DNA from: Cyanidioschyzon merolae
Taxonomy: Eukaryota
Length of the DNA stretch: 64,000 nt
NCBI GenBank assembly: GCA_000091205.1
Contig: AP006495.2
Direction: 5' to 3' (one strand)
In this document: one piece after another, positions 26,696-61,214 of the stretch
How positions within the stretch are numbered: the stretch's first letter is position 1
How the letters are laid out: each line of letters begins with the position of its first letter
Program-made: the position numbers and the translations under genes
The notes under the pieces: model-generated
What the model saw: the letters and a program-made list of their open reading frames with translations, nothing else
Database searches by the model: none
Told to the model about the DNA's origin: nothing

Positions 26696-26713
26696 AAAAG
26701 CTTGAAAGTCCGC

Positions 26714-27244: not shown

Positions 27245-27456
27245 CCCCGTGGATACATTTCGCTTTCTGACTTTGAGACTTTTGAAATCGAAGATATTCT
27301 TTCAGTGCGTCTCATGGTTTTCGCCAGTGAAGTCCTCTCTGCTAACATTGAACTCGGGACTGATCTCCCTCATGATGCCGTAAAGGACGCCGGAATCGAT
27401 ACTCACAAAATGTGACTTGATGTTGCGCATTGGAACGACGTTGAAGCGCTTACCCA

Positions 27457-27942
27457 TTAGGATAGACTTCCATCTCTCTCACTCTTCATTTCCACCTTGC
27501 GTTCGAGCTCTCGGTCCAGAAACACGAAATATCGCAGGACAAGGCGATAGGATCTTTTCTTATCTTTTTTCAACTGTGATATCTTTTCTGCTGGATTCAC
27601 CAGCGCCAGCGCCGCACGGTGCTCTTGTATAACCGCACGGATGACAAAGACCTCATTCGTGCTCTGGTTTGACGCCTTCTCGTCGACGAATTCGATCTCA
27701 TGTTCATGCTTGCGATCGTTCCTTATGCCGTTGAGAATCGCCCGTATCCCTTTGCGAGACATGCCCTGGTAAAGTGCAAACACGGCGCGTATCATGAAAC
27801 GTTCGACGTTCATTGTCAAATGATTCTTCAGGTTCGTGACGCACTTCATCGCCCCGTATGCGTAGATATCCCAGTCACCCTTGTATCGAGTACCGTTGAT
27901 GCTGTAAAGGGTATTTCTCGTGGAGGGCGTGATTCCGCTCAT
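27457..27942 (-). CDS. Element ORF2 (copy A)
   Basis: 161-aa ORF MSGITPSTRNTLYSINGTRYKGDWDIYAYGAMKCVTNLKNHLTMNVERFMIRAVFALYQGMSRKGIRAILNGIRNDRKHEHEIEFVDEKASNQSTNEVFVIRAV..., 97-99% identical at protein level to copies B and C. It lies in the -1 frame relative to ORF1. Confidence 0.45.
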   Translation of the reverse strand: MSGITPSTRNTLYSINGTRYKGDWDIYAYGAMKCVTNLKNHLTMNVERFMIRAVFALYQGMSRKGIRAILNGIRNDRKHEHEIEFVDEKASNQSTNEVFVIRAVIQEHRAALALVNPAEKISQLKKDKKRSYRLVLRYFVFLDRELERKVEMKSERDGSLS

Positions 27943-28283
27943 TTTCCCTCCGCGCTTCCCGCTGTACCATGCATCAGGTATCGAAAAAACGTCTTGTCGA
28001 AGGATTCGCCCGGAATCTCGACCGTTTCCATGTGCGCCACATCGCGATACATCTCCCTCGCCAAATGCATCCGTCCTGACGACGCCTTGAGAATACTCTT
28101 GGAGTACGAGTCGACACGGTTCCTAATGGCCTCTCGCAACTTTTCCCTGTACGGATCCTTGACATGTCCAACAAGACAGGCTTTCACCGCCATCTCGGAG
28201 TACAGTTGTCTTTCTTGCCGCCTTCGACGTAGGGCCTCCCTCTTTTGCTTCATTTTTTCTTCTTGTTCTTCTGAACTCGGCAC
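27939..28283 (-). CDS. Element ORF1 (copy A; longest N-terminus of the three copies), basic N-terminal protein
   Basis: MPSSEEQEEKMKQKREALRRRRQERQLYSEMAVKACLVGHVKDPYREKLREAIRNRVDSYSKSILKASSGRMHLAREMYRDVAHMETVEIPGESFDKTFFRYLMHGTAGSAEGK. It ends on the conserved GGGAAAA-TGA junction and overlaps ORF2 by 4 nt. Confidence 0.45.
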   Translation of the reverse strand: MPSSEEQEEKMKQKREALRRRRQERQLYSEMAVKACLVGHVKDPYREKLREAIRNRVDSYSKSILKASSGRMHLAREMYRDVAHMETVEIPGESFDKTFFRYLMHGTAGSAEGK

Positions 28284-30962
28284 TGTTTCTTGTTTTTTTT
28301 TCTGGCAGCCAGCGACACTGAGCCTCAGGATCGTCGACTTGCTTTTTCATAACTTTCCTTTTTTAGGTTTTGTAAAAAGAACGCTTTTGAACGCTTCTGT
28401 TATAATCCGCAAAAAATCAATCGAACATTTTTACTTGAGGTTTGAAACACAAATGAAACCGAAAAACTGTACTTGGCTATGAACTCAACGAGAATACAAC
28501 TTTTACATCAGAGCTACACGCTAGAAATCACGATCACGTTTCCCGTCAACGGAGGCATACGCGTCGTGTCAGTTTACTGCCTGATCTCCCAGTTGCGCTC
28601 ACTGAGCGCGATGCGTGCACCTCGCCAGACGCCTCACCGATCGATGAAGGACACGTGTCCGACGCCGCATTGGCATATGCGTGTTCGCATCGCGTTGCAG
28701 CGGAAATAAAGTATCGTAGATCGGAAATTCACGCAGAGTAGTCTCTCGCTATAGGCTATGTCGCTGGTGCCGACGCTGCTACCCATCGCAGTACCGCCTT
28801 GACAGACATGTAGATGTTGGGGCCTTGCAAGAAACCCCTCGACGCTTCTATCAAAAGCGTAGCCATCGTAGTATCCTACGATCGTGCGGGTGAGGTATGC
28901 ATCACTCTACTCAATAGGAGTTTCGTTAGTTTTATTGATCGTAAACAAACAAGGCATAGTAGTGTTCCCGAACACGGATATGCGTTTAATCCCTGTGCTT
29001 GTTATGCAGGCTGCACGGACGCTGGGATGAGAAACTGGTTTGAGTTGTGCTTCTATCCTGCGTCATGGGCAGGTACTGATGGCAGGTCAAGTCATTGCCA
29101 TGCTGCCGTCGTTGTCCAAGTTATGATATCCGCTACTCTCTCGGATCCGGTGATCTCGGCAGAGGAATAGCGCACATGTAGCGTGCAGATGTATCACGGC
29201 GTTTGACTGACGCATCTCGCCTGGCACGTTCGAAGCATCCGCTAAAAGCGCATACTGTATTCTGGTCTATTCTCACCGTTTACTGGCAAGAGCCTAAAAT
29301 GTAGATAGCGGTGCAATCGTCAAACCGTGAACTTTTCCGTACCCCCGCCGCTCCATATGCTCCCGGATGCTCGGTGGCTGCCTGCTGGTTTCCCACTCTC
29401 ACCAGCAAAACTGCAGAACGGAAGGATTTTCTTTCTATCTTTTACCGTTCAATGACTGGAAACCGTTTCACGACCATGTAGGGTAAATTCATATCCACTC
29501 ACAGACGCCTCCCGGTCTTTTTGGACTGGCCAACAACTACTGTTTCCAACTTGTCCTTGGACAAGTTGGCAGTAGGAGGCTGTCCCACAAAGTCGGATCG
29601 CGTCAGCTCCGCCGGTCGCGCCTCCATCGTCATTCATCCGTTGATACTGATCGTGTTTTGTCTAAAACGCTTGTGATAGAGCTGAGGTCAAGAGGCGATC
29701 AATTTTGACCGACGCTATCACACGATCGGTACCAGAAGCTAAGGGCTGCAGCCGGCACCAGGTGCTCTTGTGACGGCATGCTGGCCGTGAAGAGTGCGTG
29801 ACGAAGCCGCATGGCACGCGAGGGTGTCCTAGTACATAAAACGAGGACGTGCCCGAGACGTTCAGATTCAGGGTAATGACGAGTCGCCGCTACGGTATTC
29901 TGGGAAAATAATCCGAGTGAGCTTTTGTTGCTCGAACATCGAGCACTATCACGAGTGTGGGTGCGTTTCACTGCACGGTTTGTAACGATCATAGAATCCA
30001 CCATCATCCAAAAGCGACGAAATGTCATACGCGCACCGGCCTCGTAAATCCAGGTCAGGACGTGCCCAGCAGCACGGAAACAAATTACGTGAACTGCTGT
30101 GCTTGCACCGAACGAAAGGAAGCATGCGTTTCCTCGACCGAAGATAGAGGCTTCCGAATTCATTCAGATACTGCCGATGTTTCGCCCGAACCCAGACCAC
30201 CATCTGCAATGTGCCCAAGACCATACACAGGATGCCTACGATTGTTTGCATCATCAAGTTAAGTCCTACTCACGCCAGTACCTCAGATATATAGTTCGGA
30301 CACGACACATGCTCGAAATGGAAGCCGTATGGGGTTTGCCGCAGGCGCCAACGGCACACCAGGTTGCCCGGCTCACCCGTGCCATTGCACACCACGCTTA
30401 TCCAAAACTCGGCTGCAACTGTAGCAGCGGCATCGCCAGCGTGTATGCATCGGCGCCATAGGATTTTTCATTGAGAAAACGTTTCCATTGACCATGGATC
30501 CCAGATTGCCGGATGGGCGCAGACATACGGGAAATCACTCTTTATGTTGTACCCTTATTTCTAGTTCCATTCGCGATTGTTCCTCTCGGATATACTGGTC
30601 ATTTTGCAGGTTATATCGTGCGCCTAGTGCGTGCCGTGCCTAATCCGCCTTGGCGCCTGAACCGCTGGAGCAGATATTTTTGGTAAAGACTGAACTGCTT
30701 TTCCGTACCGCTGAGGGTGTCGGATCAAGGAACGCTTCGTCTGATGTGGAGTAGGAGCACGTGATCATTCCGGGAGCCTGAAAACTGGGAGACATACGAT
30801 CTTTCTGCGACAGCGCGAAGCGATATACTAGGAGTGATCAACGACCAGGGTGATGCCCCGTCGCAGCATACCCGCTCCTAGTCCCAGAATAAAGTGCATT
30901 GCGAACGAGTTGCTCAGATTTAACCAAAGTACCTGTCACTGGGGCGGACATGAAGCGCAAGC

Positions 30963-31696
30963 TTGGGAACCTGTCTTCTTAAATATATCAAGGATCCGTA
31001 CAGGGAAAAGTTGCGAGAGGCCATTAGGAACCGTGTTTACTCGTACTCCAAGAGTATTCTCAAGGCGTCGTCAGGACTGATGCATTTGGCGAGGGAGATG
31101 TACCGCGACGTGGTGCACATGGAAACGGTCGAGATTCCTGGCGAGTTCGTCGACAAGACGTTTTTTCGATACCTGAAGCATGGTAGAGCGGGAAGCGCGG
31201 AGGGAAAATTGAGCGGGATCACGCCCTCCACGAAAAATATCCCTTTTACAGCTTCAAAGGTACTCGATACAAGGGTGACTGGGATATTCGCAGCTACGGG
31301 GCGATGAAGTGCGTCACGAACCTGAAGAATCATTTGACAATGAACGTCGAACGTTTCATGATACGCGCCGTGTTTGCACTTTACCAGGGCATGTCTCGCA
31401 AAGGGATACGGGCGATTCTCAACGGCATAAGGAACGATCGCAAGCATGAACATGAGATCGAATTCGTCGACGAGAAGGCGTCAAACCAGAGCACGAATGA
31501 GGTCTTTGTCATCCGTGCGGTTATACAAGAGCACCGTGCGGCGCTGGCGCTGGTGAATCCAGCAGAAAAGATATCACAGTTGAAAAAAGATAAGGAAAGA
31601 TCCTATCGCCTTGTCCTGCGCTATTTTCTGTTTCTGGACCGAGAGCTCGAACGCAAGGTGGAAATGAAGAGTGAGAGAGATGGAAGTCTATCCTAA
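30963..31696 (+). pseudogene. Element ORF1/ORF2 region (copy B), carrying two private 1-nt insertions
   Basis: Track ORFs 30963..31307 and 31304..31696. An extra t converts gggaaaatgagc to gggaaaattgagc, and a second indel near ..aaaaatatccctttt breaks ORF2 until MKCVTNL.. resumes the copy-C frame. Confidence 0.4.
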
Positions 31697-31908
31697 TGGG
31701 TAAGCGCTTCAACGTCGTTCCAATGCGCAACATCAAGTCACATTTTGTGAGTATCGATTCCGGCGTCCTTTACGGCATCATGAGGGAGATCAGTCCCGAG
31801 TTCAATGTTAGCAGAGAGGACTTCACTGGCGAAAACCATGAGACGCACTGAAAGAATATCTTCGATTTCAAAAGTCTCAAAGTCAGAAAGCGAAATGTAT
31901 CCACGGGG

Positions 31909-32439
31909 ATGATCGAAACCGATGGAGTAGCTTTGTGTGTACACTATCGGCGGTTGAAGATAAATCGTCCAGTTCCGCCCTCGGCCGCGCCCGTCACGAA
32001 GGATGAAGAAATCAAAGAGGCGGATCCTGCGACGCAGGAGGTGCATGAGAAGGGCCTCGTCGTTGACGCGGCGAAGCATGAAGATGAGAAGGAGGCGGAT
32101 CCTGCGACACAGGAGGTGCATGACAAGGGCCTCGTCGTTGACGCGGCGAAGCATGAAGATGAGAAGGAGGCGGATCCCGCGACACAGGAGGTGCATGGCA
32201 AGGGCCTCGTCGTTGGCACGGACCCTGGGAATACGAATATCATGACCATTGCAGCACCGAAGCGTGCGGTAGATGGCATTGACGGCAACTTACGTGAGAG
32301 CGACTTGCGTCTGTTGAGGTTCTCAAGAACTAGATATTCTCGAGAATCCGGTATAATGAATGCGAGGAAGAAAATTGAGACACGGAATGCAGGAATGAAG
32401 GATCACCTGGAAGCTTTGAGCGAGGTGACAAGCCGATGA
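31909..32439 (+). CDS. Element ORF3 (copy B): repeat-containing protein with RuvC-I-like motif
   Basis: ATG start; ..[10 protein letters not shown](E/D/G)KGLVV x3 ..[74 protein letters not shown], then TGA. Confidence 0.45.
32029..32212. repeat. In-frame 69-bp tandem repeat, 3 units (copy B)
   Basis: Direct reading; units start at 32029, 32098 and 32167. Confidence 0.8.
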
Positions 32440-32466
32440 GCGGACTTTGAAGCTTTTCTGAAATTC

Positions 32467-32943
32467 ATGCAAGTTCGCGTTGCTCATTGGGATGCGCTGT
32501 GGAAAGAGTACACCAAGCCCCGGTGGGCTCGATTGCGAATGAATCTACACTGTGGGAAGCGGCGCGCGTTCGCGAACTTTTTCAATCGGCTGAGCGCCCT
32601 GAAGGAGAATGAAAGTCAGAGGCTCATAGTAGCTTATTGGGCTGGGCGCTGGATGACCCAAAAAGGAACGACGCCAGCCCCGACGACAAGAACGTACAAG
32701 GAGTGCGCACACTGTTTCGTCACGATACCTGTAGATAAGTTCCGAACATCGTATACACGCCACGAGCTGGGGTGTACACTTCAGAGCGTCGAGAAAGGAA
32801 AGTGCCAGCGGAGCCCTGGTGATATACAAACGTACGGACCGCTGACCGAAGAGCAAATGGAAAGAAGGGCGAAAGTTCGAGGATTGCTCGCATTAGAAAG
32901 TACAACTACGAATGGCGAGAAACGCGTAGCGTTTGTGAATTGA
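32467..32943 (+). CDS. Element ORF4 (copy B)
   Basis: In frame with ORF3 across one TGA (32437-32439). ..KECAHCFVTIPVDKFRTSYTRHELGCTLQSVEKGKCQRSPGDIQTYGPLTEEQMERRAKVRGLLALESTTTNGEKRVAFVN. Confidence 0.45.
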   Translation: MQVRVAHWDALWKEYTKPRWARLRMNLHCGKRRAFANFFNRLSALKENESQRLIVAYWAGRWMTQKGTTPAPTTRTYKECAHCFVTIPVDKFRTSYTRHELGCTLQSVEKGKCQRSPGDIQTYGPLTEEQMERRAKVRGLLALESTTTNGEKRVAFVN

Positions 32944-33595
32944 GACTTGAACGCCGCATGCAGTGGAAGGAAATGTGCGGTGATGGAAAGAAGCTCCCAT
33001 CGTGGACAGGAGAGAACTTTGTGGGACACCCTCTCAATGTGGAACTATATGAGACAAGATTGAAAGCATTCGTACATGGCCCGCCGAGAAAGCCTCCGAG
33101 GCGTCTGCACATCAGTTGGCATCGTCTTGTCTAGGGCGGGACACTCGCCACTACTGTACCACTGGCAGCAACGTTTTTCTTTTGAAAAGCGTTTGCTGTC
33201 GGGGCTTCTCAAGGCCGAGCGCCCGGTCAACGTCGCGCTAGGCTGAACTCACTGACCTACGAGAGACGCCTTCCTAGTGTTCGTCTCGGTGCCTGGCGTT
33301 TGCATGGAACTTTCTCGACAGTCTATATCTGTTTCCACACTTTTACGACTGTTTACGTAGCCTTGACTGGTAGGTATCGGTAGCAGACTAAAACGCGGGT
33401 AGACTTTCGGTGACCGAATAGCCAAAGCGAGTCTGTCCTGTGCTAGGACGCTGTTGCTCGGCAGTCTCTACGCGACATAAGCGTCCCACTTGGTGGTCGT
33501 TGCTGCTGTTATTGTCGTGGTGTTGTTCTTGTTGGTGTCGGAGGTGGTAACTGGATCCGTGTCTCAGAACATTCCTGCCTCGCGGGTGCCACGAA

Positions 33596-38362: not shown

Positions 38363-39060
38363 GCTTTCCTATAATAACGGGAATCATAATCCAATGTATA
38401 TGGACATGCCTCCGGTGCTCTGGTCTCCGCACTGCAGCACGCTCGAACCAAGTGCGCTTCAAGTTCTCGATCTCTCCGTTCCAAGCGACGCCAGGGCGCA
38501 GCGATTGACGCCGTCGGATGTACGAAGAAAAATGCTCCATATCGGCAGTTGAAGAATTGCTCACAAGCTTATGAAAAAATTCACTTATCATGCTGCGTCA
38601 GTGAATCGATCCCGTTCGGGAAACGATTTCCTATGCCTTTGCGGCGATCGACGAAACGTACTTCGACGCCTGCATGATACCTGTCACGGGATTTGCTCCC
38701 AAAGGCTCTCGTCTCTTCTGTTTCCATGAGAAAGCGTCTTGGACTCCGACTTGAGTCATCGCAGCGATCGCTTCTTGTGGAGCGTGCGTCACTGTTTTCC
38801 ACGAAGAAAGTGGATTCGTATCGACATTTCTCGACTTGTTCTCCAACCTTGATTCTTCTTTCGGTATCTGTTTCATCTTGGCCAACATCATGTTCCAGAA
38901 ATCATCTATCCGCTGAAAAACCATGAGCTCGTGTGTGCAGCTGACAGAGTACATGGCAAGCGGATCGCCCAAATCAGTACTGTGACCCATTGGTACGGCA
39001 CCTCGGGCACGTAAGCGGAGGCGGGAATCGGGGAGTCTTCTGTGCCCGCCACGGGCATGC

Positions 39061-39432
39061 AGCGAGCGATGTGGCAAGCGCTCACACGGCATGAGGCAGC
39101 CTCCGGAGGACGTCAAGGCGGACACACAGGAAAGTTCCTGACCACACTCAAGTAGCGAGCGATGTGGCAAGAGCTCACACGGCATGAGGCAGCCTCCGGA
39201 GGACGTCAAGGCGGACACACAGGAAAGTTCCTGACCACACTCAAGTAGCGAGCGATGTGGCAAGAGCTCACACGGCATGAGGCAGCCTCCGGAGGACGTC
39301 AAGGCGGACACACAGGAAAGTTCCTGACCACACTCAAGTAGCGAGCGATGTGGCAAGCACTCACACGGCATGAGGCAGCCTCCGGAGGACGTCAAGGCGG
39401 ACACACAGGAAAGTTCCTGACCACACTCAAGT
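39061..39432. repeat. Minisatellite, 93-bp unit x 4
   Basis: agcgagcgatgtggcaag(a/c)gctcacacggcatgaggcagcctccggaggacgtcaaggcggacacacaggaaagttcctgaccacactcaagt, with unit starts at 39061, 39154, 39247 and 39340. It explains the periodic 268-aa minus-strand ORF 38631..39437, which is an artefact. Confidence 0.85.
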
Positions 39433-39748
39433 GTCATCGCCGCGACAGGCGCACCGAGTGTCCATCCAAAGAAGCTTCAGTGAGCAAGCGCAACGTCGAT
39501 CGCAGCTTCCGCCTTTAGGTAAACAATGCGATAAAAAAGCAGCAGTCGGAAACAACGAGCATCGGCACGCTTTATCTGCTATGAGTGTCTATCGACAGTT
39601 GCTCATAGAGCTGGAGCCCCAGAAGAGACCGACGTTCCTAAAAGTTGGAGATAAGACGCGGGAAACCGTAGCAGTCGAAAAAAAGTTTCGCATACGCAGG
39701 TATTGAGGATAGCAAGAAGATGCCGCAAACACGAGGGCGTGCGTTCGG

Positions 39749-45360: not shown

Positions 45361-48300
45361 CACACCCGGGCGCACGTCGTCTTTCTTGTGCAAGTCCTTC
45401 TCCAACCGGAAAGGTCGTCACCTAACGACATATACACGTGTATTCCATTTGAAGAAAGGAATATCCAAGGGAAAGGTATGGACGTGCGCGTCGAGGATCC
45501 TGGTGTGCCGTCATCACCAGGTAGAACAACAACCGAAAAACGAAGAAAATCCTCTTCTCGTCGATCATTGAGAGAGCGACGAAGAGCAGCTTACGACGAA
45601 GAAGAGGATGACCAGGAGAGATTGACGACAACAAACGTTTGCTCGACGTAACGATGACGAGACTGTAGTGGCAAAGCGAGCACGAGTTCGAGGACTCGCA
45701 GCAAAAGTGACTTTAGCCATCGTCAATGCACCCAGGGCGTTCGTGAACCGAGACTTGAACGCCGTCATCAATATCAGAAGATATGTGGTACTGAAGACGA
45801 AACCCGCGGAGCTGGCTTGATGTTATTTTATGGGGCAGCATCTCAGGCTCGAATTGTGCCTGGATGAATACTAGAACCGATAGAAGGCAGCCGGTCAAAA
45901 AATAGGCCGGGCGGCGTCTGCGAGTGAGTTTGTATTCACGCTCCATGGTCGTGAATCATTTCTCGTTCCACTGGCTTGTTGTTTTGAAGAATCAAGATGA
46001 TTCGCGACGCCCGCCAAAAAGGTGTATAACGTACCCCAAGTCACGAGCCAACGCTTACGCACGAGCCTCTACGCCTATCCATTCCATACATATGCAGTGG
46101 CCCAGTGATACATGCTTCAGGTTTTCGATCTCTCTGTTTCAAGGCGACTCGTGTGCGCAGCGATTCGTGCCACTGGTCTGAAGAGGAAACATAAAACGCG
46201 ATGCTTCCTTTTGACGACTCGTCCACAGGCAAATGCGGAACGGTCGCTGAACTTGTCAGGCCACGAAGCCGCTTCCGTGCGAAAGACCAATCCTGCTTTC
46301 GTTTCGAGCATAGGCGAAACGGCGCTTGACAACACCATGATAGCTCGCACAGCATAGACCGTGCGACGCCCTCATCTCTTCTGACTGCATGAAACTGGGA
46401 CTTCGACTCGGGCTTTCGTCATCGCAGCGATTGCGCCCAGTAGGGGAAGCGTAGAGAATTCGAGTTTGTTTGACTTTGTCTAGAGCCCGGATTTTCCTTT
46501 CGATCCTTGTTTCAGTATGAATGGGACTGCGCTCCACAAATCCATGATCCATTGGAACAGCATTCGCCTGCGTTTGCAGCGTACATCGTACTCGCTCATG
46601 GAATCGCCCAGAACACGCCAGTACTGGTAGGGTGCGGCATCGAGCGCGAAACCAGCAGGAAAACATCTGAGACAGCCTTCTGGTATCGCCAAGAGCATGT
46701 ACCGAGCGATGGAGCAAGTGTTCGCACGCCACAATGCGGCTTTCAGAGGAGCACGAGGCGTCGTTCGGGACGCACCGGAAAACCTGACTACCGGCAAGTG
46801 TACCTGCTTCGAGGGATGCACAGAGGCTGTTCACAGAGAAGATGCGCGTGCCTGGCGAAAGACTTCTAGATTGCAACTCCCACGTCTGCGAGGAATTTTT
46901 CTACGAGTTCTACTGCGGCGGCCTCGAGAATTCAACGCTGCTATGAGCATTCTTCGCCCGTCGACGACGGATCTGGAGGCATACAGCGGAACGGAGTCAT
47001 GAAAACCGGACACACGGGAAAGGCAATGGACGCTGTCGCAGAAAGACCGCGTAAAGGCTGGTACTGAATGGTCGTAAGAAAATATTCAATCCTGTCCGTT
47101 TACGCCCGTATTCGCGGACCTGGTTCATGTGCTTTCGCAATGGGTGTCACGAAGACTCGCCATGTCGTTTCAATCAATTCCTCACGATCAAGTAGGACGG
47201 ATGATCCTCGTCAGATTCTCCAGCTATGCAAGGACCGACGATAACCCTGCCGGTTGGCTCGTGAAATCCACGCCCGTGTCCAGATTCCACAAACACCAGA
47301 CTAGTATATATCAAGACCGATCCGTGAATCATTGGGGGCTCCTGGCCGACACAGAGCGCTCACGAGCCCACTGGATACGGCGGTGCCGACCTCGTTGTGC
47401 GGAAGCACGACCGCGTTCTTCGCCCCGCTACCGAATCCACAGACCTAATCGAATGCAAACGAAATGCTCACGAGCATCCAAATGACTTTTTCGAGTCTTT
47501 GACGGGCGATCGACACGGCTCCTGCTGCGCATCCCGGATCGATGCGGGGAGGTGCTGGGCAGCGAGCCTTGCAAAGGTTCGGGTTACCGGGGCGATAGAC
47601 TGCACCTCTTGCCTAGATGTTGCTGTGTTGCACCGTCTCCAGAACAAAGCTGACCTGCAGCATTGTTTATAATCTATCGATCGCTGGGTCTACCAGTAAC
47701 CCGGTCAGTTTCAAGACGCTCGTAGCGTTTCGCCTTCGACACGAGGCACACAGCCTCGTACGTTGTCGTACGGAAGCGCAGCAGCATCGACTTTCCGCAG
47801 CGACCGCCGACTGCTTTGTACCAGGATGACCACCACAGCTCCATTGCTTCAGCAGAACGCCTCGATAACGAGACTCGACTACTCGATATCGTCTATGGGC
47901 ATGGTGCATCGATTCGATAGCAAGAAAAGTCAGACGTTGGTTGAGATATCGACAGCGTCTGGTGTACCCGTGCATCCGGGTATGGCGTGCCTCGCACCCG
48001 CAGCGTATCATGCAGTACTCGTGCAATGCGTATTCGCTGGCACCTCAGCACTGAACGCGACTACGACACCTTTGCCTCTGCCTGGGGACACCCACGCTCG
48101 CTGATGGTCTAGAGTATAGCGTGAATCCAACCGAGCGCTCAGATTCAAGCGTAACAGCGACAGTGTTTCGGATGCGCTCCGGCGTGCGACGGGATGCACC
48201 GTGCAGGACGCAAGCGCAAGAGAAACGCATCCGTTCGCATGAAGTATCCGTTGGATGGATTGCTGTTCGCATTCATATCTCAATAGATGCATCGACGAAG

Positions 48301-54863: not shown

Positions 54864-55490
54864 ATCCTTGGACAAGGACGTCGACTAGCGACCGAGGCAC
54901 ACAGACTCCCGGTACAACGCTAGCTCCAGATAATGTATGCCAGATTGCCTTATTGTAATTGACGTCGTCGTCGGTAGCGTTGTGGCTGCTGAAGCCATTT
55001 CTTCGATGAGAAGACGTTTGTATGGATCATGGATTCTAGATTGTGGGGTGGATATTGAAATCAATGCCAGTGCTCAATATGATTCGCTCTTACGCCAAGT
55101 TTCATGGTCTGTTCTCGGATATACTGGTAATTTCGTATGTTCTATCGTGCGCTGAGTACCTGCATTGCTGCATCCGCAATAGAGCCAATGCTGCTAGTGC
55201 GGATGCTGAATGGAGACAGAACGGTTTTGCCATATCCATGGGGGTATCGGATCGAGGAATGCTTCATTGAATACGGAATCGGGATTCGTCAACATTCTGG
55301 AAGCCTGGGAGATGTGCAGTTAGACCTACTGCCTGCAGCAGCGCGAAGCGATATACTAGGAGTGATCAACGACCAGGGTGATGCCCAGTCGCAGCATACC
55401 CGCTCCTAGTCCCAGAATAAAGCGCATTGCGAACGAGTTGCTCAGATCTAACCAAAGTACCTGTCACTGGGGCGGACATGAAGCGCAAGC

Positions 55491-55739
55491 TTGGGAACCT
55501 GTCTTCTTAAACATATCAAGGATCCGTACAGGGAAAAGTTGCGAGAGGCCATTAGGAACCGTGTCGACTCGTACTCCAAGAGTATTCTCAAGGCGTCGTC
55601 AGGACGGATGCATTTGGCGAGGGAGATGTATCGCGATGTGGCGCACATGGAAACGGTCGAGATTCCGGGCGAGTTCGTCAACAAGACGTTTTTTCGATAC
55701 CTGAAGCATGGTACAGCGGGAAGCGCGGAGGGAAAATGA
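55491..55739 (+). CDS. Element ORF1 (copy C; TTG at track start, N-terminus truncated by a TGA relative to copy A)
   Basis: ..CLLKHIKDPYREKLREAIRNRVDSYSKSILKASSGRMHLAREMYRDVAHMETVEIPGEFVNKTFFRYLKHGTAGSAEGK, ending in GGGAAAA-TGA (55730-55739). Confidence 0.4.
   Translation: MGTCLLKHIKDPYREKLREAIRNRVDSYSKSILKASSGRMHLAREMYRDVAHMETVEIPGEFVNKTFFRYLKHGTAGSAEGK
55730..55739 (+). promoter_or_regulatory. Candidate -1 ribosomal frameshift site: heptamer G_GGA_AAA followed by a TGA stop, with the ORF2 ATG in the -1 frame
   Basis: gcg gag gga aaa tga (frame 0: AEGK-stop). The -1 frame reads ggg aaa atg agc gga = GKMSGITP... GGGAAAA fits the X_XXY_YYZ pattern. It is identical in copies A and C; copy B is fused in frame by a 1-nt insertion. 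Confidence 0.35.
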
Positions 55740-56221
55740 GCGGAATCACGCCCTCCACGAAAAATACCCTTTACAGCATCAACGGTACTCGATACAAGGG
55801 TGACTGGGATATCTACGCATACGGGGCGATGAAGTGCGTCACGAACCTGAAGAATCATTTGACAATGAACGTCGAACGTTTCATGATACGCGCCGTGTTT
55901 GCACTTTACCCGGGCCAGTCTCGCAAAGGGATACGGGCGATTCTCAACGGCATAAGGAACGATCGCAAGCATGAACATGAGATCGAATTCGTCGACGAGA
56001 AGGCGTCAAACCAGAGCACGAATGAGGTCTTTGTCATCCGTGCGGTTATACAAGAGCACCGTGCGGCGCTGGCGCTGGTGAATCCAGCAGAAAAGATATC
56101 ACAGTTGAAAAAAGATAAGGAAAGATCCTATCGCCTTGTCCTGCGCTATTTTCTGTTTCTGGACCGAGAGCTCGAACGCAAGGTGGAAATGAAGAGTGAG
56201 AGAGATGGAAGTCTATCCTAA
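55736..56221 (+). CDS. Element ORF2 (copy C)
   Basis: MSGITPSTKNTLYSINGTRYKGDWDIYAYGAMKCVTNLKNHLTMNVERFMIRAVFALYPGQSRKGIRAILNGIRNDRKHEHEIEFVDEKASNQSTNEVFVIRAVIQEHRAALALVNPAEKISQLKKDKERSYRLVLRYFLFLDRELERKVEMKSERDGSLS. Confidence 0.45.
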   Translation: MSGITPSTKNTLYSINGTRYKGDWDIYAYGAMKCVTNLKNHLTMNVERFMIRAVFALYPGQSRKGIRAILNGIRNDRKHEHEIEFVDEKASNQSTNEVFVIRAVIQEHRAALALVNPAEKISQLKKDKERSYRLVLRYFLFLDRELERKVEMKSERDGSLS

Positions 56222-56433
56222 TGGGTAAGCGCTTCAACGTCGTTCCAATGCGCAACATCAAGTCACATTTTGTGAGTATCGACTCTGGCGTCTTTTGCAG
56301 CATCATGAGCGAGATCAGTCCTGAGTTCGATGTTAGCAGAGAGGACTTCACTGGCGAAAACCATGAGACGCACTGAAAGAATATCTTCGATTTCAAAAGT
56401 CTCAAAGTCAGAAAGCGAAATGTATCCACGGGG

Positions 56434-57039
56434 ATGATCGAAACCGATGGAGTAGCTTTGTGTGTACACTATCGGCGGTTGAAGATAAATCGTCCAGTTC
56501 CGCCCTCGGCCGCGCCCGTCACGAAGGATGAAGAAATCAAAGAGGCGGATCCTGCGACGCAGGAGGTGCATGACAAGGGCCTCGTCGTTGACGCGGTGAA
56601 GCATGAAGATGAGAAGGAGGCGGATCCTGCGACACAGGAGGTGCATGACAAGGGCCTCGTCGTTGACGCGGCGAAGCATGAAGATGAGAAGGAGGCGGAT
56701 CCCGCGACACAGGAGGTGCATGACAAGGGCCTCGTCGTTGACGCGGCGAAGCATGAAGATGAGAAGGAGGCGGATCCCGCGACGCAGGAGGTGCATGACA
56801 AGGGCCTCGTCGTTGGCACGGACCCTGAGAATACGAATATCATGACCATCGCAGCACCGAAGCGTGCGGTAGATGGCATTGACGGCAACTTACGTGAGAG
56901 CGACTTGCGTCTGTTGAGGTTCTCAAGAACTAGATATTCTCGAGAATCCGGTATAATGACTGCGAGGAAGAAAATTGAGACACGGAATGCAGGAATGAAG
57001 GATCACCTGGAAGCTTTGAGCGCGCTGACGACCCGATGA
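56434..57039 (+). CDS. Element ORF3 (copy C): 4 x 23-aa repeats followed by a RuvC-I-like motif
   Basis: [36 protein letters not shown]([25 protein letters not shown])x4 ..[33 protein letters not shown]... The G-T-D-P-(G/E)-N-T-N-I-M-T-I-A pattern resembles the RuvC-I motif (G-I-D-x-G-x-x-x-x-A/T) of TnpB/Cas12/Fanzor nucleases. Confidence 0.45.
56542..56815. repeat. In-frame 69-bp tandem repeat, 4 units (copy C)
   Basis: Unit gaggcggatcc(t/c)gcgac(a/g)caggaggtgcatgacaagggcctcgtcgttgacgcgg(c/t)gaagcatgaagatgagaag, with starts at 56542, 56611, 56680 and 56749. Confidence 0.85.
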
Positions 57040-57057
57040 GCGGACTTTCAAGCTTTT

Positions 57058-57543
57058 ATGAAATTCATGCAAGTTCGCGTTGCTCATTGGGATGCGCTGT
57101 GGAAAGAGTACACCAAGCCCCGGTGGGCTCGATTGCGAATGAATCTACACTGTGGGAAGCGGCGCGCGTTCGCGAACTTTTTCAATCGGCTGAGCGCCCT
57201 GAAGGGGAATGAAAGTCAGAGGCTCATAGTAGCTTATTGGGCTGGGCGCTGGATGACCCAAAAAGGAACGACGCCAGCCCCGACGACAAGAACGTACAAG
57301 GAGTGCGCACACTGTTTCGTCACGATACCTGTAGATAAGTTCCGAACATGGTATACACGCCACGAGCTGGGGTGTACACTTCAGAGAGTCGAGAAAGAAA
57401 AGTGCCAGCGGAGCCCTGGTGATATACAAACGTACGGAGCGCTGACGGAAGAGCAAATGGAAAGAAGGGCGAAAGTTCGAGGATTGCTCGCATTAGAAAG
57501 TACAACTACGAATGGCGAGAAACGCGTAGCGTTTGTGCATTGA
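57058..57543 (+). CDS. Element ORF4 (copy C): Cys-rich C-terminal module, in frame with ORF3 across a single TGA (57037-57039)
   Basis: ..TRTYKECAHCFVTIPVDKFRTWYTRHELGCTLQRVEKEKCQRSPGDIQTYGALTEEQMERRAKVRG.. shows a T-x-T-x-x-E-C-x-x-C ... C ... C ... D arrangement reminiscent of the TnpB Zn-finger plus RuvC-III segment. I cannot identify the RuvC-II glutamate with confidence. Confidence 0.4.
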   Translation: MKFMQVRVAHWDALWKEYTKPRWARLRMNLHCGKRRAFANFFNRLSALKGNESQRLIVAYWAGRWMTQKGTTPAPTTRTYKECAHCFVTIPVDKFRTWYTRHELGCTLQRVEKEKCQRSPGDIQTYGALTEEQMERRAKVRGLLALESTTTNGEKRVAFVH

Positions 57544-58028
57544 GACTTGAACGCCGCATGCAGTGGAAGGATATGTGCGGTGATGGAAAGAAGCTCCCAT
57601 AGTGGACAGGAGAGAACTTTGTGGGACAATCACTAAAAGTTGAACTATATGAGAAAACCATGGAAGCAGGAGTAGATGGCCGCTCCAAAAAGACGTGACA
57701 GAGTTTGCACCTCAGTCAGAGACTTCTTGTCTAGAGCGTATTTCTCGCCACTACTGCGTACTGCTGCCGGCAGCAACGTTTTTCTTTTGAAAGACGTTCG
57801 GTGTTTAGAAATCGCCGGCGCTGGCTCATCGGCTCTCTCCTGTGTCGTCTATTGACGCAAAGATTTGTGTTTTTTGTGCTTCCTAGCTTCGACGCTGAAG
57901 CGTTTGCGGCGTGCTCAGTGAACTTTGTACTCTGTTCACTGATCGGTAATCCGGGACGCGTTATACGACGCGCGCACTTAGCATTTATTGGCTACTTTTC
58001 GAGCTCAATCTTCCAAGCCTAAGTTTCA

Positions 58029-60953
58029 ATGGCACCTGCTCGTGGAGATTCAGAGGCGGCTCCAAGCGCAGACGCACCGACAACGCCCGCTTGCTGGCCC
58101 AGTTCTCGTGTGCGTCAAACATTCATCGATTATTTCATCGACAGGGGACACACTTTCGTAGAGTCGTCACCAGTGGTGCCTTTCGACGACCCGACACTGC
58201 TCTTCACCAACGCTGGTATGAACCAGTTCAAGCCCCTGTTCCTGGGTCGGGTGGATCCGACCTCACCCCTATTCGGCCTGAAACGCGCGTGTAACACCCA
58301 AAAGTGCGTGCGTGCCGGTGGGAAGCACAACGACCTGGACGATGTCGGCCGGGACACCTATCATCACACCTTTTTCGAGATGCTCGGCAACTGGTCGTTC
58401 GGCGACTACTTCAACGCCGAGGCGATCAACTGGGCATGGGACCTACTGACCCGCGTCTACGGACTCGATCCGGACCAGCTCTACGCAACCTACTTTGGTG
58501 GAGACGCTGCGAACCAGTTGCCCGCCGACCTTGATACTCGTGACCAGTGGCTGCGCTACCTGCCACCAGAGCGAGTGCTTCCATTCGGAACCAAGGATAA
58601 TTTTTGGGAAATGGGCGAGACTGGACCCTGTGGTCCCTGTACGGAAATTCACTATGACCGCGTTCGGGGTCGACCCGCGCACCAAGCTGCTGCCCTAGTC
58701 AATGCCGGTCACGAGTCGCTGATCGAGATCTGGAACCTCGTGCTGATCCAGTTCAACCGGGAACCAGACGGACAGTTGCGTCGGTTGCCTGCGCGTCACG
58801 TCGACACCGGCATGGGACTGGAACGTCTCTGCGCAATTCTGCAGGGAAAATCCTCAAACTACGACACCGATATGTTTGCGCCTCTGTTTGCAGCGATTCA
58901 GCGAGAGTCTGGATCGAGTGAAGCGTACGCTGGTCGGCTGGGTGCCACCGACTCTGCACTCACCGACACTGCCTATCGAGTTGTTGCCGATCACATACGC
59001 ACCCTGACGTTTGGCATCGCCGATGGGGCGGTACCCTCGAACGAAGGTCGAGGCTACGTTCTGCGCCGTATCCTGCGCCGCGCTGTGCGCTACGGGCAGC
59101 AGTTTCTGAACGCACCCCGCGGTTTTCTACACCGGCTCGTTCCGGACGTCGCACGGCTCTATCAAACGACGTTCCCTGAGGTGGCTGCAAAGGCTGACTA
59201 CATCGCTGGTGTCATTCAAGAGGAGGAGATGGCATTCAGTATGACGTTGAAACGCGGGTTGGATCGTTTCCACGAGACTGCACGGGCGCTCGTCGCGGCG
59301 GGTGAGCGCGTCTTTCCTGGCAAAGAGGCCTTCTTTCTGTATGACTCGATGGGCTTTCCGCTGGATTTGACCCAAATTCTGGCGAGGGAACGGGGCCTTG
59401 AAGTTGACGTCGAGGCATACGAGTCCGAAATGGCTCGTCAACGCGCGCAGTCGAGTGCTGCTCATCGGAAACGGCTCGGAGCGGCAGAAGCGCTCGTGCT
59501 CGGACCAGAGCCGCTTGCTGTCCTCTCTGAGCAATGGAAGATTTCACCAACAGACGACTCGCACAAGTATCAGTGGTACGAACCGCTCGAATGTACCGTA
59601 TTGGCGATCTACGCTGGCTCCGAGGGATTTTTGCCGGCTGCAGAGACCGGTGACGACGCCTGTGTTGGCGTCATTCTGGATCGAACGCCCTTCTACGCAG
59701 AGGCTGGCGGCCAGGTCGCAGACACCGGCCGTCTGGATGAGCGGTTTCACGTAATCAACGTGCAATCTTTTGGCGGCTATGTCGTCCATATCGGCTACGG
59801 TCGCATCGCAGTCGGTGAGCGAGTGATCGCGCACGTGGACTACGAACGACGGGCGCTGGTGGCGCCGAACCACACCGCTACGCACATCCTGAACTGGGCA
59901 ATATGGCAAGTCCTTGGCCAGCAGTGTGACCAGAAAGGTTCGTTGGTTGATGAACAAAAGCTCCGTTTTGACTTTGCGTACGGCCGTGGGCTCACCGCTG
60001 CCGAGTTAGAGCGCATCGAGCAGTGCTGTCGTGAAGTGATCGCTCGCAATTTCGTGGTCTACACACAGCAGGTCTCTCTGACAACCGCGAAGCAGATACG
60101 ATCGTTGCGCGCGGTATTCGGTGAGACCTACCCCAGTGAGGTTCGTGTCGTATGCATCGGAGCACCGGTGGAGAAAGTGCTTGCGGCTCCTGTGCAATCC
60201 GACTGGGACCAGTATTCGATTGAGTTGTGCGGGGGCACCCATTTACAGCGCACCGGGGAAGCGCACGCCTTCTGTCTCGTGGAAGAGGGCGCGATTGCGA
60301 AAGGCATCCGACGCGTGGTGGCCCGTACCGGGGCCTCAGCGCTCGAGTGCATGGCACTCGCGCGAGGTCTTGCCAGTCGCCTTCCGCCGGTGCCTGTAGG
60401 GTCCGCGGCTGAGAATGGTGCAAGCGGCGCTTCTGTGGATGCTTCCATGCCGCCCGTTGATCTGCTGACGACCTTGGCCGAGTCGCTCAAGGCGATCACC
60501 ATATCGGCGTCGGAGAAGGAGCGCCTTCGACAACGTCTGGACTATTGGGAGCGGATGGCTCGGAAGCAAGCGAAGCAGGTAGCCGCGGCACGCGAGCAGG
60601 CTCTCGTGGATGAGCTCGTACGGCTCGTGAACAATCCGCAGCAGGACGCAGGTTCACCAGTACGGCAGGTTCCCGTTGTTGTGGCTGCGCTTCCTATTGA
60701 CGGTGATCGCCGGATCCTGCAGGGCATGCTTCAGAGCGCCCTCAAACGTCTAGGCAGCGGGGTATGGGCGCTTCTGATTGCATCGCCGGAGCGCAACGAC
60801 GAATGCCTTGTTGGATGTGTCGCCGCGTACGAGGCGCAGCGCGCTGGTCTTGACTGTAGCCGATGGTTGACCGAAACCCTGGCCCCTTGGCATGGACGCG
60901 GTGGTGGCAAACCGGACGCAGCACGCGGCTCCTGTCGATTGCTTTCACCAATC

Positions 60954-60994
<41 letters not shown>

Positions 60995-61214
60995 CGCTGA
61001 TAGGACAGCGTCGATTCGAGAGGGGGATCCTGAACGAAACATCTATTATCTGGACAAAGCACTCATAGCTTTACATGATAGTATATTAACAGACAAAAAG
61101 GAAATTGCAGGGCTTCGACCGCTGCTGGAGCGAGCGGCACGCCTAGCGAATGCCGCGCTAGCGTCTTCCTTCGTTTCGACATCGACGTCGACGAGATCGG
61201 GGTCTGCTGCATAG
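58029..61214 (+). CDS. Alanyl-tRNA synthetase (class II), cytosolic type, with a polyQ insertion and a C-terminal extension
   Basis: ATG start. FIDYFIDRGHTFVESSPVVPFDDPTLLFTNAGMNQFKP (motif 1 region), FFEMLGNWSFGDYF, GPCGPCTEIHYD, TGMGLERL (motif 3), editing-domain HTATHIL...CGGTH, C-terminal DHHA1-like GGGKPDAARGS; (Q)13 at 60961-60999; 1061 aa. Confidence 0.95.
60961..60999. repeat. (CAG)13 microsatellite encoding polyglutamine inside the AlaRS C-terminal region
   Basis: cagcagcag.. x13 read directly; the antisense gives the polyC/polyA runs seen in minus-strand ORFs. Confidence 0.9.

Follow-up and report, generated by a model that had tools for sequence, protein, structure and literature searches.

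The 3' tail of a CMe-1A (Fanzor1) copy in Cyanidioschyzon merolae: mostly decayed coding sequence followed by a short, structured right end

Results and Discussion

We analyzed a window of 64,000 nucleotides from contig AP006495.2 of the red alga Cyanidioschyzon merolae, in which three related elements (copies A, B and C) are found, and focused our attention on the stretch that follows the apparent stop codon of the nuclease gene in copy C. Most probably, this region is the 3'-terminal part of a dead CMe-1A transposable element. Its first ~190 bp are the final ~61 nuclease codons, beginning at the RuvC-III motif, and the remainder is a right end that presumably acted in cis as the terminus of the element and was recognized for mobilization in trans. 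As copies B and C have a common internal deletion, their spread appears to have come after the loss of the gene. Only the last ~45–70 nt has maintained structure, and this structure could act at the DNA level. A sequence-only reading had proposed the entire tail of about 250 bp as a guide RNA (omega RNA) region; by analogy with characterized Fanzor loci, such a reading is plausible when confined to the last 70–100 nt.

Element identity and state of the nuclease

The alignments identify each of the three elements as a dead copy of CMe-1A, the C. merolae Fanzor1 element, and both the family and its 3' terminus are already known, having been published in 2013 (Bao and Jurka 2013, Mob DNA 4:12; PMC3627910). 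In blastn, the last 579 bp of the published consensus matched all three copies with 82.2–82.7% identity, close to the ~80% that the authors give for genomic copies, while the 5' part matched at 83% in A and 76% in B and C. The CMe-1 protein is collinear with the copies in tblastn over residues 12–734 (A), 58–734 (B) and 57–734 (C), with 58–79% identity, the alignments being interrupted by frameshifts and stops in each of them. Other likenesses to the element as described are the sequence of the 3' terminus, ends with neither terminal inverted repeats nor target-site duplications, and, for copies B and C, the 5' ~500–635 bp that CMe-1A has in common with TE-N2_CMe. Unlike the published element, the window copies are pseudogenes; moreover, B and C have an internal deletion of 580 bp and A has another 5' module, which extends upstream to about 29297. 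In copy C, the deletion fuses consensus positions 1–494 to position 1075 onward and thereby removed the start codon, which copy B lacks as well. For comparison, 229 homologous proteins were collected and 80 related loci were retained from 420 confirmed matches, and the right end was compared across ~59 distinct relatives from metagenomes. The coordinates of all features are collected in Table 1.

Table 1. Features of the CMe-1A copies in the window.
Feature	Position	Strand	Basis or remark
Copy A of CMe-1A	25954–28586	-	start codon (ATG 28349) and 5' UTR kept
Copy A tail	25954–26209	-	decayed coding 26209–26022, then right end 26018–25954
Copy A tail stops	premature TGA 26210–26212; TAG 26021–26019	-	
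Copy A terminal hairpin	25987–25955	-	
T/C motif of the same kind as before copy C	30462–30468	+	before copy B
Copy B of CMe-1A	30469–33199	+	same internal deletion as C, junction 30966/30970
Copy B tail	32944–33199	+	decayed coding 32944–33131, then right end 33135–33199
Copy B tail stops	premature TGA 32941–32943; TAG 33132–33134	+	
Copy B terminal hairpin	33166–33198	+	
T/C-only 7-nt motif	54997–55003	+	directly 5' of copy C left end (catttctt, then CGATGAG...)
Copy C of CMe-1A	55004–57804	+	blastn against consensus; tblastn with CMe-1 protein
Premature TGA ("ORF4 stop")	57541–57543	+	CGA>TGA, Arg codon of RuvC-III motif NRDFNAAIN
Decayed C-terminal coding, CMe-1 residues ~674–734	57544–57731	+	tblastn
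Subfamily-mosaic patch in copy C	57623–57731	+	sliding identity
Native stop TAG of the Fanzor1 gene	57732–57734	+	published protein end; family alignment
Native non-coding right end, ~70 nt (~65–70 across copies)	57735–57804	+	family alignment
Hairpin 1 (weak), GCG...CGC(C) stem, variable loop	57736–57749	+	directly 3' of stop
Most constrained tail block, CGCCACTACTG(TAC)	57746–57759	+	
Terminal hairpin, GCAGCAACGTTTTTC / loop TTTT / GAAAGACGTTCGGTG	57770–57803	+	RNAfold per copy

To judge from its motifs, the nuclease is no longer functional in any of the three window copies. The order given for TnpB/Fanzor proteins by Bao and Jurka is D ... [TS][TS] ... zinc finger ... RD (PMC3627910). The RuvC-I aspartate motif G[TA]DPGNTN is common to the window copies and the family; at RuvC-II, all three window copies read VDKFRT[SW] as opposed to VDEFRTS in the family, so that the glutamate is lost (E>K), and at RuvC-III the RD is lost, N/H-stop-DLNAA standing in place of NRDFNAAIN. 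Further stops and frameshifts occur in all three, and the 80 loci include no intact ORF, the longest (747 aa) having a changed N-terminus. Between motifs II and III only HHELGC...EKC was found, with no clear CxxC...CxxC. Pfam-A scans of the element ORFs and the longest homologues returned no significant family, precomputed database annotation gave only a weak match to PF26935/DUF8286, a profile search of the PDB gave a single chance match only, and an AlphaFold model built on a 26-sequence alignment reached a pLDDT of 37. Exact-match searches with the ORF4 protein, and with that of a flanking alanyl-tRNA synthetase ORF, retrieved no recorded protein. The probable membership of the RuvC fold rests on the motifs and on the classification in the description by Bao and Jurka. 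The CMe-1 family protein also has an NLS-like N-terminus.

The tail as the decayed end of the gene

Three homologous tails had been described in the window, and self-BLAST bore out both their presence and their placement. The same reading took the ~250 bp beyond the ORF4 stop as non-coding, which was not borne out: the ORF4 stop is a premature TGA, CMe-1 homology runs straight past it in tblastn, and homology to CMe-1 codons ~674–734 takes up ~190 of the ~256 bp. In copy C, CMe-1 residues 379–687 align to 56692–57591, through the TGA, and residues 687–734 align to 57588–57731 in a different frame, with A and B behaving likewise. At the TGA the window reads VH*DLNAA, as against VNRDFNAA in the family, and near 57590 a deletion of 1 nt, seen in the alignment as a gap column common to all three window rows, shifts the frame. 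The stretch thus looks non-coding because of two lesions present in all three copies, the CGA>TGA nonsense change and the deletion of 1 nt. The published CMe-1 protein has 734 aa and a C-terminus of ...HVSWRRFV followed by TAG, its terminus being given as ...FVNRDFNAAINIRRCAVLEKRPPELTRENFVGQPLKVELYEKKLEAVVGGRSKKTGRRLHVSWRRFV and that of the DNA as ...GTCTAGGGCGCGTTTGCCGCCACTACTGTACACCGCTGGCGGCAGCGTTTTTCTTTTGAAAGGCG (PMC3627910). With the TAG of copy C as the native stop, only the ~70 nt after it is therefore non-coding.

Two candidate signals within the former coding part were considered and rejected. Recurrent in-frame stops had suggested a programmed early stop at RPPE*TRENF, but the codon is merely hypervariable (TGG, TAG, TTG, TCG, CTG, CGG or AAG). 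In addition, entropy that is flat across codon positions in the final 47 codons had suggested constraint at the RNA level; against a baseline of 190 codons, relaxed protein constraint fits better, and comparison of third-position entropy gave p = 0.16.

In the three-way alignment, the tails of A and B are 93–100% identical in each 30-nt window. Identity between B and C is at least 96.7% over 57473–57622, drops to 80% at 57623–57652 and to 53–67% at 57653–57772, and recovers to 87% at 57773–57802. The middle of copy C had been described as replaced, which holds as far as its low identity to B is concerned; nevertheless, it is still alignable, and therefore represents a mosaic patch of another subfamily rather than foreign DNA. 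Translated, it reads KTMEAGVDGRSKKT, which is nearer to the family consensus than the A/B counterpart is.

Structure and conservation of the right end

The terminal string ...gcagcaacgtttttcttttgaaa(a)g that had been reported for the tails was found in all three copies. The end of the tail had been placed at 57800, a close estimate, with the terminus of the element actually ~4 nt further out. Sequences of A and B begin to diverge past ...GCGTTTGCTGT (33199 in B and 25954 in A), family conservation collapses ~65 nt 3' of the native stop, and family-wide base preferences continue to ~+8 beyond the end of the published consensus. Compared with CMe-1A as published, the family alignment sets the right end ~8 nt further and adds a T/C run at the left end, neither of which is mentioned in the passages of Bao and Jurka (2013; PMC3627910) that deal with the element.

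Within the right end, the CGCCACTACTGTAC block is more conserved than third codon positions upstream (entropy 0.41 vs 0.71; Mann–Whitney p = 0.0045). The whole 65-nt tail shows no extra conservation (0.87 vs 0.71 at synonymous sites), and most of its apparent conservation can therefore be put down to shared transposon ancestry. Directly after the native stop, 87% of the cells of hairpin 1 are paired and two of its five pairs show double changes, which makes it a weak candidate. The terminal hairpin has a conserved core of 8–10 bp, extended in A and B to as many as 14 bp if a bulge is allowed, and the core stops ~8 nt short of the element boundary. A covariance model of the 69-nt tail recovered 80 tails, in whose alignment 84% of cells pair, as opposed to 34–48% with slid partners. 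Changes on both sides were seen in 11 of 18 pairs (6.0 ± 1.4 in shuffles, a value of 11 being reached by 1 of 500) and in 29 cells (11.1 in shuffles, 0 of 500), these pair counts being drawn from the model-fitted alignment and hence biased towards the structure.

The stem occurs in two versions, CGTCGTTCGA/TCGAACGGCG and AACGTTTTTC/GAAAAGCGTT, and the variants TTCTA/TAGAA and TTTTG/CAGAA also preserve pairing, so that the hairpin is preserved through compensatory and register-shifting substitutions. It is moreover specific to the sense strand: mean folding energy is -10.85 kcal/mol for sense and -6.37 kcal/mol for antisense, sense is the more stable in 38 of 43 sequences (Wilcoxon p = 4e-7), and the median folding z is -2.8 and -0.3, respectively. 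Swapping arms between copies with the same hairpin version did not destabilize it (431/2000 and 77/2000 permutations). Covariation in the basal stem did not reach significance in these tests, and the covariation observed therefore rests on a few events at the level of subfamilies.

Covariation and structure across copies had been put forward as a test of the tail as a whole, and the terminal hairpin is the part that responds to it; the remaining ~200 nt shows no consensus fold, covariation or unusual stability. RNAalifold found no consensus fold in the 240-nt alignment (-0.28 kcal/mol) and an essentially empty structure, again ~0 kcal/mol, in the 85-nt alignment, in part because the MAFFT alignments set the two hairpin versions out of register. 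Among 44 sequences, no helix with more than three doubly changed cells was found 5' of the native stop, and nested helices that a permissive scan had suggested in the coding part vanished under a strict both-side-change criterion. Folding z-scores of the whole region (-1.0, -0.8 and -0.7) are not significant, and Rfam gave no match.

Left end and mobility

A T/C-only run precedes the left ends of copies B and C. Across 18 left-end junctions that are independent of each other, T is most frequent from -7 to -1 (10–16 of 18), and no A or G occurs at -4 to -1. A check of the flanks for a short conserved target-adjacent motif (TAM) had been suggested; this T/C-rich 7-nt motif of the left flank is a candidate TAM, but it may instead be targeted by a transposase or belong to the element itself. 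In the small sample given by the B and C junctions, neither a duplicated flank nor terminal inverted repeats were found. An inverted match of ~10 nt links the left end (GACAAAACGTT) to the 5' arm of the terminal hairpin (AACGTTTTTC). Folding lends no support to a left-end hairpin resembling that of the right end, being weak there (-1.3 to -7 kcal/mol), and inspection by eye of the few loci with both ends revealed no co-variation of left and right ends between hairpin versions.

The family displays variable 5' modules, over-represented 3' ends and solo tails. The tail is kept where the nuclease ORF is absent, namely in solo tails of ~97 nt at three loci (L066, L025 and L021). The sequence-only reading had counted such conservation against a guide RNA, which does not follow, because RNA-only "ghost" copies lacking the ORF are known for Fanzors (PMC10432273, PMC10530073).

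A guide RNA, a DNA signal or a 3' UTR

Characterized Fanzor omega RNAs or fRNAs, represented here by SpuFz1, GtFz1, NlovFz2 and MmeFz2 (Saito 2023) and by ApmFNuc, CrFNuc-1 and others (Jiang 2023), derive from the 3' region next to the right end, with a possible overlap of the stop codon, and CrFNuc-1, which lies within a Helitron2 element, has its fRNA mapped to the 3' UTR (PMC10432273, PMC10530073). The tail resembles them, at the DNA level, in that it is 3'-terminal, adjoins the right end and lies on the nuclease strand, and in this respect the position claimed for an omega RNA stands, although decayed coding sequence makes up about three quarters of the proposed scaffold. It differs from them in that its native non-coding part is ~65–70 nt long, compared with ~200 nt in the mimivirus locus, in that a single terminal hairpin is supported, and in that no inverted repeat marks the end. 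While the family was active, a sense transcript of the right end, perhaps together with upstream ORF sequence, would most likely have formed the guide-proximal part of the omega RNA; by this analogy, the omega RNA of the active family probably included the right end. The hairpin may well have been, also or instead, a DNA-level end signal.

A stronger form of the guide reading, in which the whole ~250 bp is a dedicated non-coding scaffold and the window copies still make a working guide from the flank, is very unlikely. A TnpB/Fanzor omega RNA would be expected at this position and on this strand, the tails of A and B hardly differ and the terminal hairpin is maintained; however, homology to CMe-1 codons already largely refutes a scaffold of this length, the coding-derived part is unstructured, the middle of copy C has diverged from B, the last 47 codons show relaxed protein constraint with no extra constraint at the nucleotide level, and the nuclease is disabled in three of three copies. 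That these copies make functional guide RNA today, whatever its extent, is also quite unlikely. Nor do we favor a reading of the hairpin as a common 3'-UTR feature in the Fanzor mRNA, acting for example in 3'-end formation or stability and neither in guiding nor in transposition, which we regard as highly improbable: the hairpin does lie 35–65 nt past the native stop, in the sense strand and folding in that strand alone, and is followed by a T/G-rich stretch, but the structure ends ~8 nt from the element boundary, is kept in solo tails with no gene to serve, and has no precedent among characterized Fanzor loci (PMC10432273, PMC10530073).

The hairpin and right end could also be purely a single-strand DNA end signal for rolling-circle or HUH-type transposition (Helitron2- or IS200/IS605-like), with no guide role, which we hold to be a minority possibility. 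This reading is consistent with a hairpin core that ends close to the 3' boundary, with the lack of both terminal inverted repeats and target-site duplications, with the inverted match between the left end and the hairpin 5' arm, and with the G-T wobbles, which being confined to one strand also suit a hairpin in a single transferred DNA strand. As described by Bao and Jurka (2013; PMC3627910), the Helitron2 elements of Chlamydomonas, also Fanzor1 carriers, insert after TTTT with no duplications and have 3' hairpins, and one-ended transposition leaves variable 5' parts and abundant 3' ends. CMe-1A is alike in its 3' subterminal hairpin, in inserting after a T-run (the 18 left-end junctions) with no target duplication, and in its frequent 5' variation or truncation, excess 3' ends and solo tails. 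It is unlike Helitron2 in that the canonical termini are absent (no 5' TC, no 3' CTRR), the asymmetric terminal inverted repeat is off its canonical place, being inside the hairpin and not upstream of it, and the 5' hairpin is weak. Moreover, the paper that defined Helitron2 leaves CMe-1A unclassified in its passages on the element (PMC3627910).

The right end of CMe-1A could serve two purposes, as a DNA role is compatible with an RNA role. In IS200/IS605 elements (ISDra2, IS608), the DNA of the right-end hairpin and the omega-RNA scaffold overlap. These elements, like CMe-1A, have no inverted repeats or target duplications, carry a subterminal hairpin on one strand ~10 nt from the point of right-end cleavage, and insert beside a short conserved motif in the left flank, which doubles as the TAM in TnpB systems. 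CMe-1A differs from them in its unsupported left-end hairpin, its eukaryotic host and a protein with an NLS-like N-terminus, and we know of no Y1 transposase for it. A combined model can be drawn up from these parallels, in which CMe-1A and TE-N2_CMe are single-strand, HUH-type (Helitron2- or IS200/IS605-like) transposons that insert immediately after a T-run with no target duplication, and the Fanzor1 omega-RNA scaffold ends in the sense-strand terminal hairpin; the T-run would then serve as the TAM and the right flank would supply the guide. This model is doubtful as a whole; if it holds, a nuclear eukaryotic element would keep the ancestral homing logic of TnpB, "insertion motif = TAM, right flank = guide", and the solo tails would be guide-only ghost loci.

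The rule that Fanzor guide RNAs derive from the 3' end was already published in 2023. What the dead 3' end of CMe-1A adds is an annotation trap: past the first stop of decayed transposon copies, sequence can be former coding sequence, and conservation between copies, which shared ancestry also produces, is on its own no sign of function. In addition, the CMe-1A family has ~150 copies in C. merolae, an intron-poor alga amenable to genetic work, in which the right end of ~70–100 nt and the T-run at the left junction yield cheap predictions on whether red-algal Fanzor1 is RNA-guided and on which transposition chemistry it uses.

Flanking sequence

The tail had also been said to carry an outward-facing ATG. 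It exists in the A/B subfamily and only there, the family consensus at this point being GGTGGCC. In copy A it is in frame, by chance, with a flanking host gene that bears a Polyketide_cyc domain. An alanyl-tRNA synthetase ORF was also observed in the flanks.

The tail consists of decayed coding sequence and the native right end

When the joined element ORFs were used as the query, 229 homologues with 52-79% identity were found, and these continue beyond the stop of the window's "ORF4", reading ...GKKRMEFVNRDFNAAINIRKCAVLEKRPPELTRENFVGQPLKVELYEKKLEAVVGGRSKKTGRRLHVSWRRFV. The Arg codon of NRD, which is RuvC catalytic motif III, is CGA in the family and TGA in the window. Past this TGA, the window translation reads DLNAACSGR.CAVMER and, after a 1-nt deletion visible as a gap column common to the three window rows of the family alignment, the other frame gives ..WTGENFVG...RRLHISWHRLV and then TAG. 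Moreover, the C-terminus of the published supplementary CMe-1 protein, encoded by the Fanzor1 transposon CMe-1A, matches GKKRMEFVNRDFNAAINIRKCAVLEKRPPELTRENFVGQPLKVELYEKKLEAVVGGRSKKTGRRLHVSWRRFV exactly, and tblastn with CMe-1 covered residues 12-734 in copy A, 58-734 in copy B and 57-734 in copy C, with residues 687-734 falling within the tail. The sequence-only reading had taken the whole ~250-bp tail as non-coding, which does not hold, as homologues read through the TGA to the native TAG and only the segment beyond it is natively non-coding. The region is thus decayed C-terminal coding sequence followed by the native right end (3' terminus) of a dead CMe-1A copy.

Further lesions were observed in the copies: motif II, VDEF, carries an E>K change, a GGA>TGA stop separates "ORF3" from "ORF4", and there are additional frameshifts. 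As nonsense, E>K and frameshift lesions are common to the three copies, their common ancestor element was already dead. The codon after RPPE is hypervariable in the family alignment (TGG/TAG/TTG/TCG/CTG/CGG/AAG), being a stop in about one fifth of copies, and its neighbouring codons are about 90% conserved. Entropies at the three codon positions, in order, are 0.62, 0.48 and 0.63 in the final 47 codons and 0.46, 0.39 and 0.71 in a 190-codon baseline; protein constraint is weaker there (p=0.009, positions 1+2), and extra nucleotide constraint at position 3 is not significant against the same baseline (p=0.16).

Positions of features in the window, and of solo right ends in related loci
Feature	Position	Strand	Remark
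Copy A	25954-28180	-	Repeat-matching part (self-BLAST); CMe-1A homology to ~28586
Copy B	Right limit 33199	+	Self-BLAST
Copy C	Right limit ~57804	+	Self-BLAST
Native stop TAG, copy A	26019-26021		
Native stop TAG, copy B	33132-33134		
Native stop TAG, copy C	57732-57734		
Natively non-coding tail, copy C	57735-57804		
ATG, copy A	28349		
Codon after RPPE	~57597-57599		
Acidic tandem repeat, copy A	26932-27156		
Acidic tandem repeat, copy B	31998-32297		
Acidic tandem repeat, copy C	56523-56897		
Diverged Fanzor1-like fragment	23628-24176	+	CMe-1 residues 502-689
Diverged Fanzor1-like fragment	29496-29654	-	CMe-1 residues 677-728
Diverged Fanzor1-like fragment	45659-45930	+	CMe-1 residues 640-706
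ORF from copy A tail into host gene	25139-26077	-	312 aa
Solo diverged 5' module	6969-7230	+	68% identity
Palindrome GCGCTCAGTGAGCGC	28600-28614	-	15 nt
Alanyl-tRNA synthetase-like ORF	58029-61214	+	1,061 aa
Copy C end to this ORF	57805-58029		~224 bp
Tandem-repeat array	5398-5740		111 bp x3
Tandem-repeat array	11137-11439		101 bp x3
Tandem-repeat array	39049-39513		93 bp x4-5
Solo right end	L066:370-463		~97 nt
Solo right end	L025:923-1019		~97 nt
Solo right end	L021:2193-2273		~97 nt

Window copies and their identity with CMe-1A

Self-BLAST showed one repeat present three times in the window. In 30-nt windows of the three-way tail alignment, A and B are 93-100% identical; B and C share at least 96.7% across 57473-57622, 80% in 57623-57652, 53-67% across 57653-57772 and 87% over the final 30 nt. 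This confirms the earlier description, in which the proximal part and the terminal string are conserved and the middle of copy C diverges. That middle had been called replaced; it is indeed divergent but still aligns, which indicates a patch from another subfamily rather than foreign sequence. A and B are recent duplicates, and their sequences part directly after ...GCGTTTGCTGT.

The window copies belong to CMe-1A, agreeing with it in every feature tested. Over the final 579 bp of the published DNA consensus, which terminates ...GTCTAGGGCGCGTTTGCCGCCACTACTGTACACCGCTGGCGGCAGCGTTTTTCTTTTGAAAGGCG, their identity to it is 82-83%. CMe-1A was published from the red alga Cyanidioschyzon merolae, and the host is accordingly most probably C. 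merolae or a close relative. In their passages on this element, Bao and Jurka (2013, PMC3627910) describe ~150 copies with individual identities of ~80% to a consensus of 3,169 bp, some of them intact, encoding a 734-aa protein and lacking terminal inverted repeats; target-site duplications were not determined there, and the 5' 635 bp is common to TE-N2_CMe. None of the 80 loci fetched here has an intact ORF; the related loci were all drawn from a small number of JGI metagenomes, and L059 and L064 among them resemble orthologues of window copies. In copies B and C, consensus 1-494 is joined to 1075. Because this common internal deletion takes out the start codon, B and C spread as a non-autonomous derivative with both ends kept. 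In copy A the ATG and the 5' UTR survive, as does an NLS-like N-terminus, and the upstream module is a different one.

The basis for placing the protein, putatively, among TnpB/Fanzor nucleases is its published classification together with motifs I to III as found in the family consensus. Pfam scans gave no significant Pfam-A family for the element protein, precomputed database annotation lists only a weak match to PF26935/DUF8286, a PDB profile search found no match, and the AlphaFold model is of poor quality.

A sense-strand terminal hairpin in the right end

Among 71 unique 3' ends, aligned with the protein as anchor, similarity extends past the native stop and collapses ~65 nt downstream. 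Base preferences continue ~8 nt beyond the published consensus end: across 44 sequences, T occupies +1 in 38 and +2 in 43, G occupies +4 in 30 and +7 in 31, and A is nearly absent up to +9. The right end comprises, in order, hairpin 1 (GGCG-variable-CGCC), the block CGCCACTACTGTAC, a variable stretch, the terminal hairpin and these ~8 nt, TTYGKTGT. Likeness among transposon copies is no evidence of constraint; mean entropy of the 65-nt tail (0.87) is not below that of synonymous sites, the sole exceptions being the CGCCACTACTGTAC block (0.41, p=0.0045) and the stems of the hairpin.

The terminal hairpin has two main versions, CGTCGTTCGA-CTT-TCGAACGGCG and the window type, AACGTTTTTC-TTTT-GAAAAGCGTT, which reaches 14 bp with one bulge. 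Five or more substitutions plus a register shift separate them, and both still fold; further variants show clean double changes (TTCTA/TAGAA, TTTTG/CAGAA). A search with a covariance model built on the 69-nt tail yielded 80 tails, and in their alignment 84% of cells pair, versus 34-48% with partners slid. Both sides changed in 11 of 18 pairs (shuffles 6.0 +/- 1.4, reached by 1/500), with 29 doubly changed cells versus 11.1 in shuffles (0/500), counts that come from an alignment fitted to the model, a fit that favours structure. Swapping arms between same-version copies did not weaken the fold, so that the covariation signal amounts to a few subfamily-level events.

Mean hairpin energy is -10.85 kcal/mol for the sense strand versus -6.37 for its complement, the sense strand being more stable in 38 of 43 (Wilcoxon p=4e-7), and median z against shuffles is -2.8 versus -0.3. 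The asymmetry arises because conserved positions are G-U/G-T wobbles, and it implies that the top strand is where the structure acts, whether as RNA or as single-stranded DNA. The right end thus bears a maintained, sense-strand-specific terminal hairpin.

Elsewhere little structure was found. RNAalifold gave essentially no consensus structure (-0.08 kcal/mol for the 85-nt and -0.28 for the 240-nt alignment), a null that over the hairpin stems in part from misregister in the alignment. Upstream of the native stop, no helix had more than three doubly changed cells among 44 sequences under a strict criterion. Whole-tail folding z was -1.03 for B, -0.81 for C and -0.67 for a relative whose C-terminal coding region is intact, and Rfam had no match for the tail. 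In the tail, the covariance-model counts and the strand comparison support the terminal hairpin, and neither structure nor covariation was found upstream of the stop.

Proposed role of the right end

The CMe-1A element and its terminus were already known, as was the general derivation of Fanzor guides from the 3' end; the 8-nt extension, the compensated sense-strand hairpin, the left-junction T-run and the solo tails are new details. The right end would act as a cis-acting terminus, through which the deleted copies B and C may have been mobilised in trans. In every characterised Fanzor, omega RNA derives from the 3' end (PMC10432273, PMC10530073). By analogy, a sense transcript of the right end probably supplied the guide-proximal part of omega RNA in the active family. 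The tail fits an omega RNA in its position, and the proposal of a guide-RNA region here is retained as a predicted role; the ~250-bp scaffold is not retained, structure being supported in the terminal hairpin only. It is about equally probable that the hairpin serves as a DNA-level signal, either in addition to this role or in its place. That the window copies produce a working guide at present is very improbable.

The ends themselves bear on the mechanism. The 7 nt preceding the published left end (5' terminus) are T or C only at 18 independent junctions, with T most frequent at -7 to -1 (10-16 of 18), A and G absent at -4 to -1 and random composition farther upstream; copies B and C show the run as well. 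The run reflects either a preference in target choice or the actual first bases of the element. Solo right ends, without nuclease sequence, span the final ~30 nt of the ORF and the tail (L032 holds another); all are preceded by one unrelated sequence, GGTGGTATGTTATTTT, and the ~700-bp 5' module of copy A begins ~25 nt beyond each. Solo tail and module could form a composite or tandem arrangement, itself amplified. Bao and Jurka (2013, PMC3627910), where they treat Chlamydomonas Helitron2, also Fanzor1 carriers, describe insertion after TTTT without duplications, a 3' hairpin, frequent 5' truncation and short asymmetric inverted repeats. CMe-1A resembles these in its T-run, 3' hairpin, variable 5' modules and solo 3' ends; however, its ~10-nt inverted match, between the left end (GACAAAACGTT) and the 5' arm of the terminal hairpin, is positioned otherwise, and its left-end hairpin folds weakly. 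These features are also reminiscent of IS200/IS605, the elements in which TnpB originally resided; there, the motif flanking the left end serves as target-adjacent motif (TAM), and omega RNA includes the transcribed hairpin region of the right end. That CMe-1A is a eukaryotic HUH-type transposon retaining TnpB-style TAM-and-guide homing is rather unlikely.

Other features of the window

A solo diverged 5' module of CMe-1A/TE-N2_CMe type is preceded by the T/C run ggtttcttttctc. The palindrome GCGCTCAGTGAGCGC lies at the start of the universally shared 5' region of the family, and alternative 5' modules diverge upstream of it. The Fanzor gene contains an acidic tandem repeat with a 75-bp (25-aa) unit, located shortly ahead of the RuvC-I motif, which varies from 0 to >4 units among the three copies and family members. 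Three extra Fanzor1-like fragments are much more diverged (30-58% aa identity to CMe-1), the middle one lying immediately upstream of copy A and oriented like it; counting copies A-C, the window contains six or more remnants related to Fanzor, which belong to more than one family.

In copy A, an ATG in the decayed tail opens an ORF that leaves the element and enters a neighbouring host gene, in which Pfam identifies a Polyketide_cyc/SRPBCC domain (E=1e-7). This fusion is probably fortuitous, and the host gene likely begins at an internal ATG. The short distance from copy C to the same-strand alanyl-tRNA synthetase-like ORF means that its right end points into that gene's upstream region. Three unrelated tandem-repeat arrays are also present.
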